Shown here in pieces: positions 2,424 to 10,736 of a DNA stretch of 64,000 bases. A program made the translations under genes and the position numbers. This DNA is from an uncultured delta proteobacterium (GTDB lineage Bacteria; Desulfobacterota; BSN033; UBA1163), in the NCBI GenBank assembly GCA_963827685.1, contig CAWHBU010000002.1, positions 416,001 through 480,000 on the forward strand, written 5' to 3'. The notes under the pieces are model-generated. The model was not told the origin of the DNA. It did no database searches and saw only the letters and a list, made by a program, of their open reading frames with translations. The first letter of the stretch is position 1; each line of letters opens with the position of its first letter.

Positions 2424-3932
2424 ATGAGAAGGTGCATTTACCTCATTTTCTTAATCAGTTTTTTTCTCCTTGCGGGTTCTACAACAATAGCCCAGATTTC
2501 TAAGGGAGGAAAGGAGATGGGGATGAAAGAGATCAGAGAGCCAGTTGTTGCAGGGGCATTTTATCCCGATAACCCGGAAGTTCTTTCACGGGACGTGAAG
2601 CGTTATCTTGAAAATGCGAAGAAGGAGAAGTTGGAAGGGGAAATCGTTGCTCTGATCTCACCTCACGCTGGATATATGTATTCCGGCCAAGTAGCAGCCT
2701 ATGCCTATAAACTAATCGAGGGAAAGGCGTTTGATTCGGTTGTCGTGGTCGCGCCCAGCCATCGGGCTCTTTTTAAAGGTGCCTCCCTTTATGATCGGGG
2801 AAGCTTCCGAACCCCCCTGGGCGTTGTTCTTATTGACGCTGAACTTTCCAAAAAGATGATGGAGAAGCGGAAAGAGATTCAATTTCTTCCCGAGGCTCAT
2901 TCCCAGGAGCATTCGTTGGAAGTTCAAATTCCTTTCTTACAAGTCGTTTTAAAATCGTTTAAACTGGTTCCCATTGTAATGGAGCCCTACTGGAGCTGGG
3001 AAACCTGCCAATACCTCGCCTCAGCCATTGCCGAGGCTGTGAGAGGGAAAAAGGTCTTATTAGTTGCAAGTTCAGACCTCTCCCATTTTCATTCTTATGA
3101 TGAAGCGGTTAAACTCGATAAGATCGTTCTGAATCATATCGATCGATTCGACCCAGAAGGATTGAACCGAGATCTAAAGGATGGACGTTGTGAAGCCTGC
3201 GGCGGAGGGCCAATCATTTCTATCATGCTGGCAGCCAAAGCACTGGGGGCGAATAGGGGGAAGGTGCTCAAATATCTCAACTCTGGAGATGTGACTGGGG
3301 ATCGGGGCCGAGTGGTAGGTTACGCGGCTGGCGTTTTATATAAGACAGCCGGGGGGAAAGAGAAGATGAAAGATGAAAAGAAAGTTGGTGTCGATTTGGG
3401 TTTAAAGGAAGAGGAAAAGAAGACCCTCCATCATATTGCGAGAACAGTGATTGAGAATAAGGCAAGAGGAAAGGCCGTCCCAGAGTTCAAGATCGAATCG
3501 CCCGTTCTGAAGGAGAATCGGGGGGCCTTTGTGACCATTCAAAAAAGAGGACAACTGAGGGGTTGCATTGGTTACATTGAAGGGCATGGACCACTTCATA
3601 AGACGATTGAGAAAATGGCTGAGGCTGCGGCATTCAATGATCCCCGTTTCACCCCTGTTAAGGAAAAAGAACTTCCAGAACTCGATATTGAAATATCCGT
3701 TTTAACTCCCCTCAAGAGGATCACAGATGTCAATGAAATTCAAGTTGGGAAACACGGGATCTACATTAAGAAAGAATGGTTCTCAGGTCTTCTACTCCCC
3801 CAGGTCGCTACAGAATACGGATGGGATCGTCAGACCTTTTTAGAACACACCTGTCAGAAGGCAGGCCTTCCTTCCAATGCGTGGAAAGAAAAGGATATAG
3901 AAATCTATATTTTTTCGGCAGATATCTTTTAA
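2424..3932 (+). CDS. AmmeMemoRadiSam system protein B (MEMO1) - protein A (AMMECR1) fusion
   Basis: MEMO motifs AGAFYP, PHAGYMYSG, EHSLEVQ, SSDLSH, ACGGG; AMMECR1 motifs LRGCIG, DPRF, LLLPQV. Alternative start at 2517 has a strong RBS. Confidence 0.9.
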   Translation: MRRCIYLIFLISFFLLAGSTTIAQISKGGKEMGMKEIREPVVAGAFYPDNPEVLSRDVKRYLENAKKEKLEGEIVALISPHAGYMYSGQVAAYAYKLIEGKAFDSVVVVAPSHRALFKGASLYDRGSFRTPLGVVLIDAELSKKMMEKRKEIQFLPEAHSQEHSLEVQIPFLQVVLKSFKLVPIVMEPYWSWETCQYLASAIAEAVRGKKVLLVASSDLSHFHSYDEAVKLDKIVLNHIDRFDPEGLNRDLKDGRCEACGGGPIISIMLAAKALGANRGKVLKYLNSGDVTGDRGRVVGYAAGVLYKTAGGKEKMKDEKKVGVDLGLKEEEKKTLHHIARTVIENKARGKAVPEFKIESPVLKENRGAFVTIQKRGQLRGCIGYIEGHGPLHKTIEKMAEAAAFNDPRFTPVKEKELPELDIEISVLTPLKRITDVNEIQVGKHGIYIKKEWFSGLLLPQVATEYGWDRQTFLEHTCQKAGLPSNAWKEKDIEIYIFSADIF

Positions 3933-3948
3933 CCCGCTCATCCCTTCG

Positions 3949-4101
3949 TCATTCGATTTTGTATTGTTTTACAATGGCGGTTAACTGTTTGCCCAGGTCA
4001 TTCAGGTTTTAGGCTGCTTGGTCCACCTGCTGCATGCCTTTCTGCATTTGCACCGCCCCTTGATTGATATTCTCCATCGCCCGTGTGATCTGATCCATTC
4101 C
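3949..4101 (-). pseudogene. Methyl-accepting chemotaxis protein C-terminal fragment
   Basis: Hand translation: GMDQITRAMENINQGAVQMQKGMQQVDQAA*NLNDLGKQLTAIVKQYKIE*, an MCP methylation-helix pattern with an internal TAA at 4009-4011. Confidence 0.75.
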
Positions 4102-4605
4102 GGATACTTTTATTTTCCTGAAACCTGCCCAGTGCCGGATGAATATCATTCACCGTCGAAATGAGTAAGGGTCAAAAGCAGACTTGACCCCTTTTCTTCC
4201 TCTTGTGGCGGTGAGAAGAGAAGTGCATTGTTGAGAGAATTGGCAGAGAGAGAATGGATGGACGGGGAGGAACTAAGGGTGGTGAGGAGAGCGAGAGAGA
4301 TTGTGAGAGTGACAAAGCATCTTTGAGGTGGCGGTGCGGGGGTACGGGTATCCGGCCCTTAGTTGTTTCCCACGATTTTTCTTGAAATGATTGCAGGAAA
4401 TTCATTAAATTTTGTTGCTTTTTTTTAAAAGTGTAGTATAACTTCTTATGTTTAATCTTATATATTTATCCAAAAAAGGGATTTCTTCACAAACAAAGAA
4501 TTAGTTGTTTTACAGGATGTCTCCTGACAGGAACGTATAACCATAGCATTGCAGCACGGTTAATATGACATCAACCATATTAATTTTCTAACCGGAGATT
4601 GGATT

Positions 4606-5007
4606 ATGGACAAAGAACTTATCCTAGACAACGAAAATATGACCATATGGTATTATCCTCACAAAAAAATCGTCCACCATGAATTTCATAAATTTACGTA
4701 TGGGAAGACATTGCGGGACGGATTAAGTGCAGGAGCTGCAATATTAGAGGAAAAGGGGGCTCAAAAATGGTTATCAGATGACAGGAAGAATACTGGTCTC
4801 GGTAAAGATGACATGGATTGGACTGCGACTGTTTGGAGGCCTCGAGTCATAAAGGCAGGATGGAAATATTGGGCTCTTGTTCTCCCGGAAAAAATTCTAG
4901 GACAGATGAGTATGAAACGAATAATCGAAGAATATGCCAATACTGGCGTTACGGTACAGATATTCAGCGACCCCGATGAAGCCATGAGGTGGCTTGAGAC
5001 CCAATAG
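4606..5007 (+). CDS. SpoIIAA-like / STAS-SEC14 domain protein
   Basis: 133 aa; KWLSDDR and C-terminal FSDPDEAMRWL are typical of this family; RBS ggag. Confidence 0.7.
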   Translation: MDKELILDNENMTIWYYPHKKIVHHEFHKFTYGKTLRDGLSAGAAILEEKGAQKWLSDDRKNTGLGKDDMDWTATVWRPRVIKAGWKYWALVLPEKILGQMSMKRIIEEYANTGVTVQIFSDPDEAMRWLETQ

Positions 5008-5143
5008 GCTGCCAATAGATGGTATGAGCTTATATGTATGCTTTTTAACTCCACGAAAGATCAAGTTTTTCGGGACGAACCTATCTCTTCAATAAATTTA
5101 TAGAAGTCGTTTGTGTTCTGATTGTTTTCATTTCTCTTGTTTT

Positions 5144-5298
5144 GTACCAGTTTAGTCCCTATCTTACCCGCCGCTATCGAGACATCAGCTTGAATTGTTA
5201 TACAGGGCCGCTTGGGCCGTTGCCGTATCCGCAGTGAGGAGGGTTTGCAGGAATTCCCTTGGATGGATGCCTTGTCTTCTGGCAGTTTGCACTAAAAA
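5144..5298 (-). pseudogene. IS66-like transposase C-terminal remnant with right end
   Basis: LVQTARRQGIHPREFLQTLL...* resembles the TnpC C-terminus; end GTACCAGTTTAG at 5144; truncated by the adjacent element. Confidence 0.5.
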
Positions 5299-5377
5299 TG
5301 AGCTAACTACCAGATCGTAAGCTAAAGAAGAAGGGAGAAATGGGTGACACTCCTGAGAAGGAGAAAGGAGTGTACCC

Positions 5378-7324
5378 ATGGAGAATGTAGCAGGAGTTAA
5401 GAAGAAGGGCAAGAGGAAAGGAAGTCGGTATGGGAAGCGGTATGGGGTTGAGTTCAAGCTTCGGTGTGTGAAGTTACGATTAGAAGAAGGGTTACCAGTT
5501 TCTTTGTTGTCCGAGGAGGCAGGAGCCAGTAAAGATGTCATTCGTCGTTGGGTGAAGGCATATCAGGAACGGGGAGAAGCGGGGTTACGGAATCGTATTA
5601 TATCCTCGGGGAGACGACGGAAGCTTCCCGGACCAGTACGCGAGAAGATCGTCGAGATCAAGAAGCGTGAGCCTCTCTTTGGTGTCAAGCGGATTTCCCA
5701 TCTTTTAAAGCGTGCGTTCTTCCTCAGCGCGAGCCCGGAGACAGTCCGTCGGACGCTGCGGGCAGAATCGTTGATTGTTCCTTCCAGAAAGAAACACCAT
5801 CGCAACATCACCCGTCCTCGGTTTTTTGAGCGGTCGACACCGAATCAATTGTGGCAGTCGGACATCTTCACCTTTCGCCTGGGGGGTCGGTATGCCTATT
5901 TGATCGGGTTTATCGACGATTACTCGCGGTACATGGCGGGTTTGGAGTTATACCGGAGCCAGACGGCGGATCAGGTACTGGAGGTGTATCGTCGGGCAGT
6001 TGGGGAGTATGGGGTACCGAAGGAGGTGTTGACAGATCGGGGACGGCAATATACGAACTGGCGGGGATCGACTCGGTTTGAGCGGGAGTTACGGAAGGAC
6101 CGAGTCAGACACATTAAGTCCCAGGCCCATCATCCGATGACGCTGGGGAAGGTGGAGCGGTTTTGGAAGACGATCTATGAGGAGTTTTTGGTACGGGCGC
6201 AGTTTGGGAGTTTTGAGGAGGCGAGAGAGAGGATTCGGCAGTGGGTGCAGTATTACAATTACAAGCGGCCTCACCAGGGGATTGGAGGGCTGTGTCCTGC
6301 GGATCGGTACTTTGAGATCCAGGCAGAGCTGCGAAAGACGATGGAGCAAGGGATCGCAGAGAATGTGCTGGAGATGGCCTTGCGGGGGAAGCCGCGGGAG
6401 CCGTTTTACATGGTAGGGCGGATGGAGGGGCAGTCGGTGGTCTTACGGGCGGAGAAGGGAAAGCTGCGTTTGATGGTGGATGATGAAGAGGGCGGTGGAA
6501 AGCAGGAGATGATCTATGAAGTTGGCGCCAAAGGAGAAGAGAAAGATCGTTCTATTAAGAGGGAGGAGAGCGATGGACAAGGTAGAGAAGCCGAAGGTAG
6601 AGAGGTCAGGGATAGAGGACAAGAGAGGGAGGAAGGTTTCGGGGCACACGGCGGAGGAGAAGTGCCGGGCGGTGTTGTCGGTATGGACGGAGAGACGCAA
6701 ACCCGGAGAGGTTTGCCAGGAGTTGGGAGTCGCGTGGAGTTTATTGAACCAGTGGCAGGAGCGGGCGATGGAGGGGATGCTCTTGGCATTGCAGTCACGG
6801 GTTGCGGTGATGGAGAAGAGAGTGGCATTGAACTCGCGTCTTGCGGTATTGTTGGAGCGGAAGAGCAAGGGAGGAGCGATGAAAGGATTGGAGCGGCGTT
6901 TGGCGAGACTGCAGGGAAGTCCGGTGGCCAAGCCAGGAGAGTTGAAGGAGGTTGGGGCAGAGAAGAAGGTCTGACAATCTACAGGGAGATTTTGGATGGA
7001 GGAAAGGAAACGGCGGCACGAGAGGGAGAAGGAACAGAAACTTGCACGGGAGCGGGCGCTGGTGATTCTCCAGGTGCGCAGTGGAGCCTTAACTGCAAAG
7101 GAGGGAGCGCAGCGGCTGGGGGTGTCGCGCAAGACGTATTACGAGTGGGAGGAGAAGTCGCTCAAAGCCATGGCCCTGGCGTTGGAGAATCATCCTGCGG
7201 GAAGACCGCCTGTGCCTGTGGACGAAGAGAAGGAGACGCTTCTGGAGCGGATCCAGGAATTGGAGAAGAAGCTGGATGTCGCGAAGCAGACCACCAAGGT
7301 GAAAGAGTTCCTGGGGGTGTATGA
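5378..7324 (+). CDS. IS481-family-like DDE transposase with long low-complexity tail
   Basis: N-terminal HTH; rve core WQSDIF, IDDYSR, LTDRGRQY, GKVERFW, YNYKRPH. Confidence 0.88.
   Translation: MENVAGVKKKGKRKGSRYGKRYGVEFKLRCVKLRLEEGLPVSLLSEEAGASKDVIRRWVKAYQERGEAGLRNRIISSGRRRKLPGPVREKIVEIKKREPLFGVKRISHLLKRAFFLSASPETVRRTLRAESLIVPSRKKHHRNITRPRFFERSTPNQLWQSDIFTFRLGGRYAYLIGFIDDYSRYMAGLELYRSQTADQVLEVYRRAVGEYGVPKEVLTDRGRQYTNWRGSTRFERELRKDRVRHIKSQAHHPMTLGKVERFWKTIYEEFLVRAQFGSFEEARERIRQWVQYYNYKRPHQGIGGLCPADRYFEIQAELRKTMEQGIAENVLEMALRGKPREPFYMVGRMEGQSVVLRAEKGKLRLMVDDEEGGGKQEMIYEVGAKGEEKDRSIKREESDGQGREAEGREVRDRGQEREEGFGAHGGGEVPGGVVGMDGETQTRRGLPGVGSRVEFIEPVAGAGDGGDALGIAVTGCGDGEESGIELASCGIVGAEEQGRSDERIGAAFGETAGKSGGQARRVEGGWGREEGLTIYREILDGGKETAAREGEGTETCTGAGAGDSPGAQWSLNCKGGSAAAGGVAQDVLRVGGEVAQSHGPGVGESSCGKTACACGRREGDASGADPGIGEEAGCREADHQGERVPGGV
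6573..6974 (+). CDS. Transposase-associated HTH protein (nested in another frame of the transposase tail)
   Basis: RBS GGAGGA; HTAEEKCRAVLSVW...VCQELGVAWSLLNQWQ resembles an OrfA-type HTH. Confidence 0.7.
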   Translation: MDKVEKPKVERSGIEDKRGRKVSGHTAEEKCRAVLSVWTERRKPGEVCQELGVAWSLLNQWQERAMEGMLLALQSRVAVMEKRVALNSRLAVLLERKSKGGAMKGLERRLARLQGSPVAKPGELKEVGAEKKV

Positions 7325-7364
7325 GGAGTTTCGGGACCGCGGCGGCGCTAAAAAAAAACAATAG
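6996..7364 (+). CDS. OrfA-like HTH/coiled-coil protein
   Basis: TAKEGAQRLGVSRKTYYEWE HTH and GRP motif; ends in an A9 run. Confidence 0.78.
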   Translation: MEERKRRHEREKEQKLARERALVILQVRSGALTAKEGAQRLGVSRKTYYEWEEKSLKAMALALENHPAGRPPVPVDEEKETLLERIQELEKKLDVAKQTTKVKEFLGVYEEFRDRGGAKKKQ

Positions 7365-8446
7365 ATCGGCAAGAAGCGATCAGAAAGGTTGTAGAGACGA
7401 TTGAGAGTATGAAGGAACGGACAGGGATGCCTTATGGGATGATTTGCAAGACGCTTCAGCTCCCTTTAGCGAGTTTTAACCGGTGGCGCTTCAGGATCAA
7501 GGAAAACGTTGTTTTAATCAATCGTCCGGGTCCGAAGAAGGTACAACCGTTTGATCCTTCGGTTCTTGACACGGAGGTTCAATCGTTAGATCATGGGGTG
7601 AAGCGGAGTGTAGGAACAACCGGCTTATATCAACGGTACCGGTTTAGTGTGTCACGGCGGGAGCTGGGGCGAATGGTGGAGCGGGTACGGCACGACCTGG
7701 AGTCGGATCGCCGTGCCCATCTTCGCTGGATCGAATGGCTGACGCCAGGGGTAGTGTGGGCTATGGACTTCACGGCATATGACCTGGGGATAGCCGGTAA
7801 AATCTATTTGCACAATACGCAGGATCTGGGCTCGCGGTACAAGTTTTTGCCGATGGCCGGAGAGTATCCGGTTGGAGAAGAGGTGGCTGGATATCTGAGC
7901 GAGAAGTTTGATCGGTATGGCACGCCTCTGGTGTTGAAGCGGGATAATGAAGGGAATATGAACCACACCGCCATCAACGATGTATTAGCCGAATCATTTG
8001 TTCTACCTTTGAACAATCCGGAGTATTATGCACCCTACAATGGAGCAATCGAAGAGTCACAACGAGAGGTGAAGACAACTCTACGGAAGAAAATTATGTT
8101 GGGTTTGCATGGCTACCGGGATCATATCGCTGCGTATGCGGAAGCTGCGGTCAATGATCTGAACCATCGGATCCGGCCTTGCCTGAATGGGAAGACATCC
8201 TGTCAGGCATTCTTTGAATCTGGCAACAGACCGGCTTTTACGAAACGGCAAAGGAGGGGAATCTATGATTGGGTAATGGAAAGGGTGGAAAGGATTTTGT
8301 TGGCAATGAATCAATCTGGACTGGCTGTCAGAGAATCAGCCTGGAGGATCGCGGTGGAATCCTGGCTCCAATCCAGTGGACATATCAGGGTTCACATCAA
8401 TAAAAAGTGTCACCCAATTTTACCCCTTTTTTTAGCTCATGAATAG
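7352..8446 (+). CDS. Second DDE/integrase-core transposase (OrfB-like, probably fused to OrfA by -1 frameshift at A9, 7350-7358)
   Basis: WAMDFT, LKRDNEG and YNGAIEESQ catalytic motifs; the -1 frame is open from 7352 to the ATG at 7409. Confidence 0.8.
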   Translation, partial: KKTIDRQEAIRKVVETIESMKERTGMPYGMICKTLQLPLASFNRWRFRIKENVVLINRPGPKKVQPFDPSVLDTEVQSLDHGVKRSVGTTGLYQRYRFSVSRRELGRMVERVRHDLESDRRAHLRWIEWLTPGVVWAMDFTAYDLGIAGKIYLHNTQDLGSRYKFLPMAGEYPVGEEVAGYLSEKFDRYGTPLVLKRDNEGNMNHTAINDVLAESFVLPLNNPEYYAPYNGAIEESQREVKTTLRKKIMLGLHGYRDHIAAYAEAAVNDLNHRIRPCLNGKTSCQAFFESGNRPAFTKRQRRGIYDWVMERVERILLAMNQSGLAVRESAWRIAVESWLQSSGHIRVHINKKCHPILPLFLAHE

Positions 8447-8464
8447 GTAGCGTGTACAATCGAG

Positions 8465-9064
8465 TCAACCCCGTTTGAAAGGGCCGTGCTTTACCCTGTC
8501 CTTTCTGTTAGAAATTGCATCTTTTTTGATATCATCCCCACCATCATTGGCGGGGTTTTCTAACGGGGTCAACCTGTCGACCCTTTCCACACCATTGTTC
8601 GGCAACAACCGAGAGGCGTCGAGGACCAATATCATGGTATCCTCCTGCTGGACGGCCGCTGAAAGAAAGCGCGACTGCGACACAGCCGCTGGAGGAGATT
8701 GGATCTGCTTTGATGAAAATTCAAGAATGTTCAACACTTCATCTACAATGACTGCCACCGTTTGGTCCTGGATCTGAACGATCAAGAGGACATCCTGCAA
8801 TTCAGGATGATTGCCCGCTTGGCCGAAAAGCCTTCTCAAGTCAATCACTGGCAGCATCTGTCCAGCCATTGCGATAATCCCCAACATCGAATTAGGCGCA
8901 TCGGGAATCGGGGTTACGGCCACCATACGTACCGCTCGACTCACATGATCCAATGGCAAGGCATAGCGCTGCTGATCAATCCGGAAAACAACATAGTGTC
9001 TGGACTTGCCCTCTGATTGAGAAGGCTCGGTCACTTTTTGCATTGATAAGGCTGCGAGGTCCAT
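8465..9064 (-). CDS. cheW: CheW-like chemotaxis adaptor
   Basis: YVVFRIDQQRYAL, VTPIPDAP, GQMLPVIDLRRLF, AVIVDEV, LVLDASRLL; the C-terminal ~34 aa derive from the MITE. Confidence 0.88.
   Translation of the reverse strand: MDLAALSMQKVTEPSQSEGKSRHYVVFRIDQQRYALPLDHVSRAVRMVAVTPIPDAPNSMLGIIAMAGQMLPVIDLRRLFGQAGNHPELQDVLLIVQIQDQTVAVIVDEVLNILEFSSKQIQSPPAAVSQSRFLSAAVQQEDTMILVLDASRLLPNNGVERVDRLTPLENPANDGGDDIKKDAISNRKDRVKHGPFKRG
8469..8568. mobile_element. 100-bp MITE
   Basis: TIR CCCCGTTTGAAA / TTTCTAACGGGG, flanked by a TCAA duplication. Confidence 0.75.
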
Positions 9065-9074
9065 ATCCTGTTCA

Positions 9075-9175
9075 CCCCGTTGGAAAGCCCCGCATTTTAT
9101 GTGCGGGGCTGACCTGGATTTGTATTTCCTTCCTTATAGAAAGATCGAGTAAAAGCCCCGTGATTTCTAACGGGG
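9075..9175. mobile_element. 101-bp MITE (same family)
   Basis: TIR CCCCGTTGGAAA / TTTCTAACGGGG, flanked by a TTCA duplication. Confidence 0.75.
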
Positions 9176-9176
9176 T

Positions 9177-10736
9177 TCACTCCTTATTCAAGAGAGGCAA
9201 CCTAAAAAAGAAGGTGGAGCCTTTCCCAACTTCACTTTCAACCCCAATGGTACCTTGATGCCCTTCGACGATCTTCTTTACAATGGCCAGCCCGAGACCT
9301 GTACTTTTTTCACCCGCTGTTGGTTTGGTGCTTGCTTTTTGAAAGGGTTTAAAAACATGCGGCAATTCATTTTCGGGAATGCCTTGACCCTGGTCGATCA
9401 CTTTGGTGACCACAAAGTCCTTTTCCTTTAACACTTCGATACGCATCATCGTATTGGGATGAGAATATTTGATGGCATTGCTGATTAAGTTATTCAATAC
9501 TTGTTCAATTTTATTCTTATCAAAATCGACCAGAGGGATGTCATCCGAAAGCACGGAATCGATTGAGATGCCTTTCTCCGTTGCAAAGAATCTATTGAAT
9601 TCGATATTCTTTCTTACAAAGTCTGGATAATTATTCTTCGTTATCTCCAGCTCTAATTTTCCCGATTCAATTTTTGATATGTCTAACAAACTATTCAAGA
9701 GTTCGAGCATGAATTTGCTTGTGTCATAGATCTTTTTCAAAAATTCCTTCTGTTTTTCTGATAAATTTTCGCTTGAATATCTCGATAGGACTGAGGAAGA
9801 ATTCTGTATCACAGCAATTGGATTTCTCAGGTCATGAGCTGCCATTCCCAAAAATTCATTCTTCTGTATGTTTAGCTCTCGCAGCTGATCGTTGGACTGT
9901 CGCAATGCCTCCTCAGCCAGCTTGCGCTCGGTGATGTCGTGAATGATGGAGTACAATAGTTGTTTGCCACGCATGAAAAGCGGGCCGCTGTAGACTTCGA
10001 CGTCCCGGATTTGACCATTCGCCAGCCGATGCTGATAGTAAGAATGGTTCTGCTGCTCGGTCAGAACGCGCTGCATCTCGGTCTTGACCTCCTCTGCCGT
10101 CAGGGTGTTGATATCCGTCATCTTAAGTTTGAGCATCTTTTCATAGGGGTAACCGTAGAAAACGCAGGCACCTAAGTTGGCATCCACAATCGTCGCTGTT
10201 TCCGGATCGATCATCAGCATGGCCGCCTGATTCTTCTTAAACAGGCTGTGATAGCGTGCCTCGCTTTCGTGCAATTCTTTCTCAGCCTGCCGGAGCGCAG
10301 TGATATCCTGCATCATGCCGATCATACGAGTCGCTTTTCCCTGCCCACTGGTCGTGAAACTTCCGCGGTCGTGGACCCAGCGATAGGCGCCGTCCTTATG
10401 ACGGAAGCGGTATTGCGCGTCTAAGGGTGTCAGATATTTTTCGGAAATCTTCAACATCCGAAGGACCTTCTCCCGATCCTCCGGATGGATCATCTGCTCC
10501 CATTGGGCAATTCCTCCCCGCATCTCATCGGGGGAATATCCCAGTACCTGTTCGAGGCAGTCGCCCCACATCATGTCGCCCGTGCTGACATCGTACTCGT
10601 GCACGAGCTGTCCAGAGGCTGCAAACAGCAGCTCATAGCGGTTCTTCCAGGCGGCGATTTTCCCCTCGGCTTTTTTGTGCTTGGCGATATCAGCAACGAT
10701 GCAGAGTTCAGCCGGGGTTGATGAATTCTCATTCAT
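9177..10736 (-). CDS. PAS-PAS sensor histidine kinase
   Basis: Two PAS/PAC domains (IHPEDRE...YRFRHKDG); H-box AAHDLRNP; NLISNAIKYS, DQGQGI, GLGLAI. Confidence 0.93.
   Translation of the reverse strand: MNENSSTPAELCIVADIAKHKKAEGKIAAWKNRYELLFAASGQLVHEYDVSTGDMMWGDCLEQVLGYSPDEMRGGIAQWEQMIHPEDREKVLRMLKISEKYLTPLDAQYRFRHKDGAYRWVHDRGSFTTSGQGKATRMIGMMQDITALRQAEKELHESEARYHSLFKKNQAAMLMIDPETATIVDANLGACVFYGYPYEKMLKLKMTDINTLTAEEVKTEMQRVLTEQQNHSYYQHRLANGQIRDVEVYSGPLFMRGKQLLYSIIHDITERKLAEEALRQSNDQLRELNIQKNEFLGMAAHDLRNPIAVIQNSSSVLSRYSSENLSEKQKEFLKKIYDTSKFMLELLNSLLDISKIESGKLELEITKNNYPDFVRKNIEFNRFFATEKGISIDSVLSDDIPLVDFDKNKIEQVLNNLISNAIKYSHPNTMMRIEVLKEKDFVVTKVIDQGQGIPENELPHVFKPFQKASTKPTAGEKSTGLGLAIVKKIVEGHQGTIGVESEVGKGSTFFFRLPLLNKE

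Follow-up and report, generated by a model that had tools for sequence, protein, structure and literature searches.

The usual view of DDE insertion sequences (ISs) is that one transposase suffices for each, with duplication of the target as the hallmark; a locus in an uncultured delta proteobacterium raises the question of whether a single element of this kind can carry, and use, two. The locus lies in a stretch of 64,000 nucleotides (contig CAWHBU010000002.1, positions 416,001 to 480,000; hereafter “the window,” to which coordinates refer unless another locus is named), where an original prediction made from the sequence alone had proposed that one pair of inverted repeats (IRs) encloses an IS481-like transposase, a small additional helix-turn-helix (HTH) protein and a second transposase divided between two reading frames. 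We find that window positions 5299-8458 are one autonomous insertion sequence, that it belongs to a large, unnamed lineage of IS3/IS481 (rve, DDE) elements, and that it encodes two paralogous transposases (Table 1).

The source genome has four identical full-length copies of the element and a fifth, 83% identical, in which all four genes are again present. The exact block 5299-8458 is common to the four identical copies, which sit in different flanks, with a deviation of the final base in one of them; among the copies of this genome the flanks diverge straight outside TGAGCTAAC... on the left and ...GCGTGTACA on the right, and a contig from public run X2 fuses to other DNA at position 5299. 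Near-identical copies are found in other genomes too, in numbers of 5, 5, 4, 3 and 2. The presence of multiple copies in different flanks bears out the proposal of a single element, in which the four genes move as one together with their pair of repeats. The repeats had been placed at 5307-5351 and 8406-8450, and the repeat finder does return these arms (45 nt, complementarity 73%); alignment with the other copies and with relatives extends them to the tips, so that their true length is 53 bp with 5'-TG...CA-3' ends. Internal repeats had not been noticed in the original prediction, and none emerged when 12 related elements were scanned with the 13-mer inner core of the end repeat (at most 2 mismatches), the 13-nt core occurring once before ORF1 and once after ORF4. 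Solo ends and miniature copies were likewise absent from the whole source genome in BLAST searches with both ends, which returned only five end pairs.

In the 83% copy (L005; G000 C2:8693-11839), GCC replaces TG. at the left tip, the A-run has eight residues and the four frames are open; this may be an old, immobile copy. Contigs assembled from public runs contained no circle junction and no empty site, and an RNA-library run yielded contigs that are 90-95% like the element, which is no proof of transcription of this copy. An Rfam scan of positions 5000-9300 gave 0 matches, and a promoter and terminator scan gave a number of sites no higher than in shuffled sequence.

Table 1. Features of the insertion sequence, in window coordinates (aa, amino acids).
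Feature	Position	Strand	Description
Whole insertion sequence	5299..8458	+	3,160 bp; TG...CA tips
Left inverted repeat (IRL)	5299..5351	+	53 bp; tip TGAGCTAAC.ACCAG, ATGAG-type box, inner GGGTGACACT box
ORF1, IS481-like transposase, 648 aa	5378..7324	+	rve, rve_3 and HTH_32 domains
ORF2, HTH_Tnp_1 protein, 152 aa	6516..6974	+	own AGGAG-ATG start within ORF1
ORF3, OrfA-like HTH and helical protein, 122 aa	6996..7364	+	N-terminal HTH of second transposase
A9 slippery run	7350..7358	+	links ORF3 frame to ORF4 frame by -1 shift
ORF4 frame, second DDE (rve-fold) protein	7352..8446	+	364 codons open; ATG at 7409 gives 345 aa
Right inverted repeat (IRR)	8406..8458	+	53 bp; reverse complement begins TGTACACGCTACC

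Linkage of the two transposase genes across phyla

Whether the two transposase genes belong together could be addressed through their distribution. Eight of 61 related genomes have ORF4; six of the eight loci compared are collinear (ORF1-ORF2-ORF3-ORF4) and two are ORF4 fragments only. In an evenly drawn sample of 401 genomes of the phylum, ORF4 has a match in 15 and ORF1, counted at E <= 1e-70, in 12, all of which are among the 15; the three further genomes with ORF4 have a contig-end fragment or weak matches only. ORF1 lies upstream of ORF4 in each of the eight loci fetched from this sample, and the same order persists in three distant versions of the element, with ORF1 at 44-64% and ORF4 at 29-38% identity. 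No match to ORF2 was found in these three versions: one is without a middle HTH gene beyond ORF3, and two have a single middle HTH gene.

A scan of species-representative genomes provided 80 loci, 57 of them with at least 2,300 nt of DNA upstream of ORF4. Fifty of the 57 are collinear: ORF1, ORF2 and ORF3 follow one another, ORF2 being present in every case, and 690-980 nt separate the ORF1 core from ORF4; in four others ORF1 is more distant, with a nested 2.3-kb IS21-type element, and the remaining three are one locus truncated at its 5' end and two fragments. The four-ORF layout is old and recurs at independent loci, as the original prediction required of a genuine element, and a half-element with repeats of its own, the pattern expected had each half been an IS in its own right, is found neither among the 57 loci with enough upstream DNA nor among the 401 genomes of the phylum sample. 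The loci are labeled as Thermodesulfobacteriota/delta proteobacteria, Nitrospirota, NC10/Methylomirabilis, Acidobacteriota/Terriglobia, Verrucomicrobiota, Planctomycetales, Elusimicrobia and Alphaproteobacteria, and the layout recurs under seven or more phylum labels. Across 36 distinct elements the pairwise distances of ORF1 and of ORF4 are closely correlated (Mantel r = 0.964, reached by 0 of 2,000 permutations), and this co-variation points to one shared history of both genes.

The family is large and poorly labeled. A word-indexed search scored 3,306 candidates, among which 1,657 proteins are related to ORF4 at E <= 1e-3; where these are named at all it is as “hypothetical protein” or “InsO family.” At 50% identity, ORF4 has 1,340 clusters, 240 of them at E <= 1e-30. 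Full-length relatives of ORF1 (629-669 aa, 93-100% query coverage) make up at least 120 clusters, without an IS name from any source. A tblastn search of the plasmid collection with ORF4 gave no match. The nested IS21-type element (L116, 1463-3800; also L118, L120 and L121) belongs to one NC10-labeled genome, where it lies on the opposite strand at two positions and encodes an IstA-like protein (rve and Mu-transpos_C_2) and IstB (E = 1.5e-85).

The two enzymes and their overlapping reading frames

ORF1 is laid out as two HTH regions and a DDE core (residues 1 to ~385) followed by a tail of ~265 aa. It covers positions 2-284 of the 284 in the NCBIfam IS481 model NF033577 and scores 221.9 bits, slightly below the curated cut-off of 224; with the IS3 model NF033516 it scores 159.8 bits against a cut-off of 160. 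Its triad, D162 (5861-5863), D220 (6035-6037) and E260 (6155-6157), is invariant in 31 sequences. The match of ORF4 to rve is weak (E = 1e-3), and its score with NF033516 is 27.2 bits. Its AlphaFold model (pLDDT 87.6) matches retroviral integrase catalytic cores in Foldseek (probability 1.00, E ~1e-9), and ORF4 is accordingly modeled with an integrase-type fold. The ORF4 triad, D120 (7766-7768), D179 (7943-7945) and E215 (8051-8053), does not vary among 22 sequences of 25-43% identity; the 31 sequences of a second set all have D120 and D179, and E215 is kept in at least 90% of them. The alignments of both proteins therefore uphold the earlier view that the two catalytic triads are intact. Third-codon-position substitution ratios are 4.0 for the ORF1 core, 1.9 for ORF2, 2.0 for ORF3 and 2.8 for ORF4, and from the triads, the third-position bias and the modeled fold of ORF4 both enzymes look active.

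The two enzymes also resemble one another. Alignment of the ORF1 and ORF4 profiles with hhalign spans 279 columns, starting at the second HTH and running past the triad (probability 80%, E = 1.4e-5), with the three catalytic residues in register, and by this profile comparison ORF4 is a distant paralogue of ORF1. The HTH regions of ORF2 and ORF3 are paralogues too (31% identity over 52 aa, E = 7e-6). Given these two likenesses, ORF3 and ORF4 together would equal one ORF1-like transposase, and the element would seem to consist of two diverged copies of one kind of enzyme and one spare DNA-binding head, ORF2. Complex prediction for the ORF1 core with ORF4 returned scores of 0.00 and 0.00, which carry no weight for or against binding.

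ORF3 and ORF4 meet at the A-run, where ORF3 reads GCT AAA AAA AAA CAA TAG and a TAA at 7349-7351 ends the frame of ORF4 and the ORF1 tail immediately before the run. For the window, the A9 run proposed at this junction was confirmed, and the -1 frame is open throughout ORF4, as a -1 shift would require; the predicted ORF3-ORF4 fusion has ~485 aa. A run of seven to nine A residues is present at the junction in 75 of the 76 loci with ORF3, and entry into ORF4 from ORF3 would take a -1 shift in 39 loci and a +1 shift in 33, the frames already agreeing in 4; many of the loci counted are copies from the same genome. Where the frames agree, the run has one A fewer than in sister elements and a single gene of 475-479 aa covers ORF3-ORF4 (L136, L138); homopolymer length may be mis-called in assemblies, so single run-length cases carry little weight. 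As the A-run persists through changes in the direction of the shift, slippage by RNA polymerase, an enzyme that may add or drop an A, is suggested, and transcriptional slippage would account for the run better than -1 ribosomal frameshifting alone. A precedent is offered by the +1 transcriptional slippage of IS3-family elements, the IS3 member IS1447 slipping on A-runs (PMC6211511).

At one locus, L126, the shift was scored -1 by script and looks +1 by eye, and the ORF1 core, its tail and ORF4 occupy one frame of 1,011 codons (~2500-5520), a possible two-DDE fusion. A natural ORF1-ORF4 readthrough fusion was rejected as a candidate: L126 is the lone case and may be an assembly indel.

One correction is made to the original prediction: ORF1 does not end ahead of ORF2, and with 648 open codons its frame covers ORF2 and most of ORF3. 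The resulting tail, rich in Gly, Glu and Arg, is the -1 frame of ORF2 and, in the window as in most lineages, of ORF3 also. In all 50 elements having ORF1 its frame is open for 120-285 codons beyond the catalytic core, and the T that precedes the A-run in most lineages creates a TAA there that closes the tail frame. How often such a frame is stop-free by chance was estimated by shuffling the synonymous codons of ORF2 and ORF3: this happened in at most 0.25% of shuffles for six close relatives, while among 20 distant elements P <= 0.05 was reached in 8, the rest being uninformative because codon usage alone seldom makes stops. In one distant element the tail is partly free of overlap by any other gene. 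On these grounds the ORF1 tail is probably translated.

Ends of the element and insertion footprint

The two ends are not equivalent. In the window copy the tips of IRR and IRL are unlike at positions 3-9, and across 16 lineages the left tip has the consensus TG(T/G)(C/G)CTAAC.ACCAG and the right tip TGTGC(A/G)(C/G)GC. Across lineages both ends begin with TGT and have, near position 20, a box of the ATGAG type; the tips are TGT...ACA in most lineages and TGA...ACA in the window copy. As left and right tips are unlike in the same way in all 16 lineages, the difference between the ends is itself conserved, which would be compatible with different handling of IRL and IRR.

The footprint of insertion was assessed in 31 insertions, from 14 element lineages, in which both tips could be defined. 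A direct repeat of at least 3 bp abutting both tips was found in 0 of the 31. By script, the nucleotides shared at the tips number 0 in 27 insertions and 1 in 4; after a one-base correction of the left boundary in one five-copy group, 2 nt are shared in two of its copies. A 3-bp NNT duplication, suggested by two of the four window-genome copies, was rejected after the true tips had been established. Nor were exchanged half-footprints seen by eye between the last 3 nt of left flanks and the first 3 nt of right flanks in four genomes. Target duplications measure 2-15 bp, most often 6 bp, in the IS481 family and 3-5 bp in the IS3 family (PMC10045372). The lack of a duplication of at least 3 bp suggests that the target-joining step, or the pathway as a whole, is unlike that of ordinary IS3 and IS481 elements. 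Either the element is joined to its target without a stagger, or the neighborhood is deleted or rearranged on insertion, or recombination among copies at a later time has removed the footprints. At L021 the 5 nt outside the tips are inverted rather than direct (TTCCA / element / TGGAA), either a longer repeat of that lineage or chance.

Empty sites were sought for the window copy in 14 genus genomes, for L003 and L004 in the genus, for L110 in a genome with 97% identical flanks and, reciprocally, for one junction in the L110 genome; in the last of these, two of three left flanks had no usable match. In these attempts one flank is conserved to 2-4 nt from the tip, and the DNA that follows it in the relative is missing from the genome under study, lies on another contig or is replaced. 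The incompleteness of the genome bins is a caveat on both the footprint and the empty-site results.

Two enzymes or one

Elements known to date provide partial parallels. IS481 (Bordetella pertussis) is like ORF1 in its domain order, its lack of a frameshift and its DDE (rve) core, has inverted repeats as here, and shares the TGT terminal start with the ends of the relatives. IS481 elements have one gene and ~1-1.3 kb, whereas here four genes fill 3.16 kb, there is a second DDE protein, the ORF1 tail adds 120-285 aa and ORF1 falls short, by a little, of the family cut-off. In IS3 elements (IS911, IS2, IS1447) the OrfA/OrfB pair resembles ORF3/ORF4, the slippery A-run would lead to an OrfAB-type fusion, and TG...CA tips are held in common. 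Unlike IS3 members, both transposases here score below the cut-off of the IS3 model, the ORF3/ORF4 pair is never an element of its own among the loci examined, and the direction of the shift varies by lineage. Neither family matches the footprint described above.

Tn7 is to our knowledge the sole well-known model of a heteromeric transposase. It too has two different nucleases per element, TnsA and TnsB, with a division of labor by DNA strand; TnsA resembles a restriction enzyme and is not a DDE enzyme, and Tn7 needs the TnsC ATPase and target selectors and makes 5-bp duplications. Here, in contrast, the two enzymes are paralogues of each other, and domain scans of the four proteins revealed no TnsA, AAA+ or Mu-transposase C-terminal domain; the same scans found no IstB within the element, unlike IS21. 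A full-text literature search, with ISfinder and TnCentral outside it, turned up no account of insertion sequences that encode two rve transposases; that the layout already has a catalog entry is on balance unlikely, and would cause no great surprise.

We consider it probable, if far from settled, that both DDE proteins take part in transposition. In such a scheme, transposase 1 would be the contiguous ORF1 product, with two HTH regions, a DDE core and the long tail, and transposase 2 would be split, ORF3 supplying the first HTH and ORF4 a second HTH-like segment and the DDE core. A slip of RNA polymerase (or of the ribosome) on the A-run would unite ORF3 with ORF4, and this need for slippage may keep transposase 2 scarce and thereby limit activity. 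Both DDE proteins would assemble on the long, multi-box repeats, the labor being divided by end, in keeping with the unlike tips of IRL and IRR, or by step or strand, and the element would join its target without a duplication of at least 3 bp. The most specific form of this scheme is put forward only tentatively: two paralogous DDE enzymes would make up a genuine heteromer, one for each end, strand or step, with unstaggered joining and a neighborhood that is often rearranged or deleted, and expression would be governed by transcriptional slippage in both directions and by an overlapping frame of ~800 nt.

Several points weigh against the participation of both enzymes. That the two proteins act on these ends, that both are needed and that they make contact is a proposal based on sequence comparison. 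Functional asymmetry of ends is known in single-transposase elements of the IS3 type (IS2, IS911), so that asymmetric ends need no second enzyme. ORF4 diverges faster than ORF1 (mean pairwise distance 0.54 vs. 0.36), and in a third set, of 12 sequences, K replaces E215 at one locus, L050. A clean empty site was seen in 0 of the 5 comparisons, the DNA next to the element differing every time, and rearrangements after insertion, not the joining chemistry, could be behind the missing duplication. Incomplete metagenome bins make up many of the genomes, and copies that share a genome do not count as independent.

In one rival account a single enzyme, probably ORF1, does all the chemistry and the ORF3-ORF4 product is an accessory: it might regulate or inhibit by competing for the ends, play a structural part in the synaptic complex, or serve as an enzyme in an alternative pathway only. 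ORF1 is the better conserved protein and ORF4 requires slippage to gain its DNA-binding head; moreover, small OrfA/OrfB products regulate IS3-type elements, and some integrase subunits are purely structural in solved intasomes. A structural or inhibitory protein, however, need not retain D, D and E, yet these are invariant in the 22 ORF4 sequences at 25-43% identity, and a lineage without ORF4 was not seen in the loci and genomes examined; we regard this single-enzyme account as rather unlikely, though it has to be taken seriously. A second rival makes ORF2-ORF4 a captured, decaying IS3-like cargo with no role in the movement of an IS481-type element. ORF1 alone does have the complete domain set of an IS481 transposase, and IS481 members with passenger genes are mentioned in the literature; but co-divergence with the transposase from phylum to phylum (r = 0.96) is not expected of cargo, which would not retain triad, A-run and reading frames, and would sometimes be lost, whereas ORF4 is missing in 0 of the 12 genomes with a close ORF1 relative. 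We hold passenger genes to be quite improbable.

What is effectively refuted is a chance composite, produced by insertion of an IS3-like element next to or within one of IS481 type. The halves do resemble two different IS families, but there are no internal repeats and no solo halves, order and spacing recur from lineage to lineage, the halves co-diverge, and the real nested element, of IS21 type, sits on the opposite strand at varying positions. Distribution and co-divergence speak for the single two-transposase element of the original prediction, which had set it against such an accident; the heteromer suggested there, possibly with each enzyme serving one end, has indirect support from the conserved triads and the conserved difference between the tips.

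The element represents a widespread family in which two paralogues, to all appearance catalytically intact, are strictly linked and leave no duplication. If both enzymes are needed, this would be a simple natural system for the division of work between ends, strands or steps, for which the only comparable model is Tn7, with its unrelated nucleases. IS finders based on duplications or on one gene will miss or split such elements, which sit where related genomes differ and whose ORF4 is mostly labeled “hypothetical protein.”

The surroundings of the copies contain other dispersed repeats. In the window, a palindromic repeat of ~108 bp, with ends AACCCCGTTAGAAAG ... CTTTCTAACGGGGT, is present as two inverted copies (8468-8572 and 9065-9185), the first beginning 9 nt from the right tip of the IS; the pair brackets an ORF on the minus strand (8465-9064), and many copies of the repeat are found in this genome and genus. 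Other short dispersed repeats of ~110-170 bp, each found dozens of times in the genus, flank two other copies of the element, at 4813-4981 and 5901-6010 in L003 and at 4757-4894 in L004.

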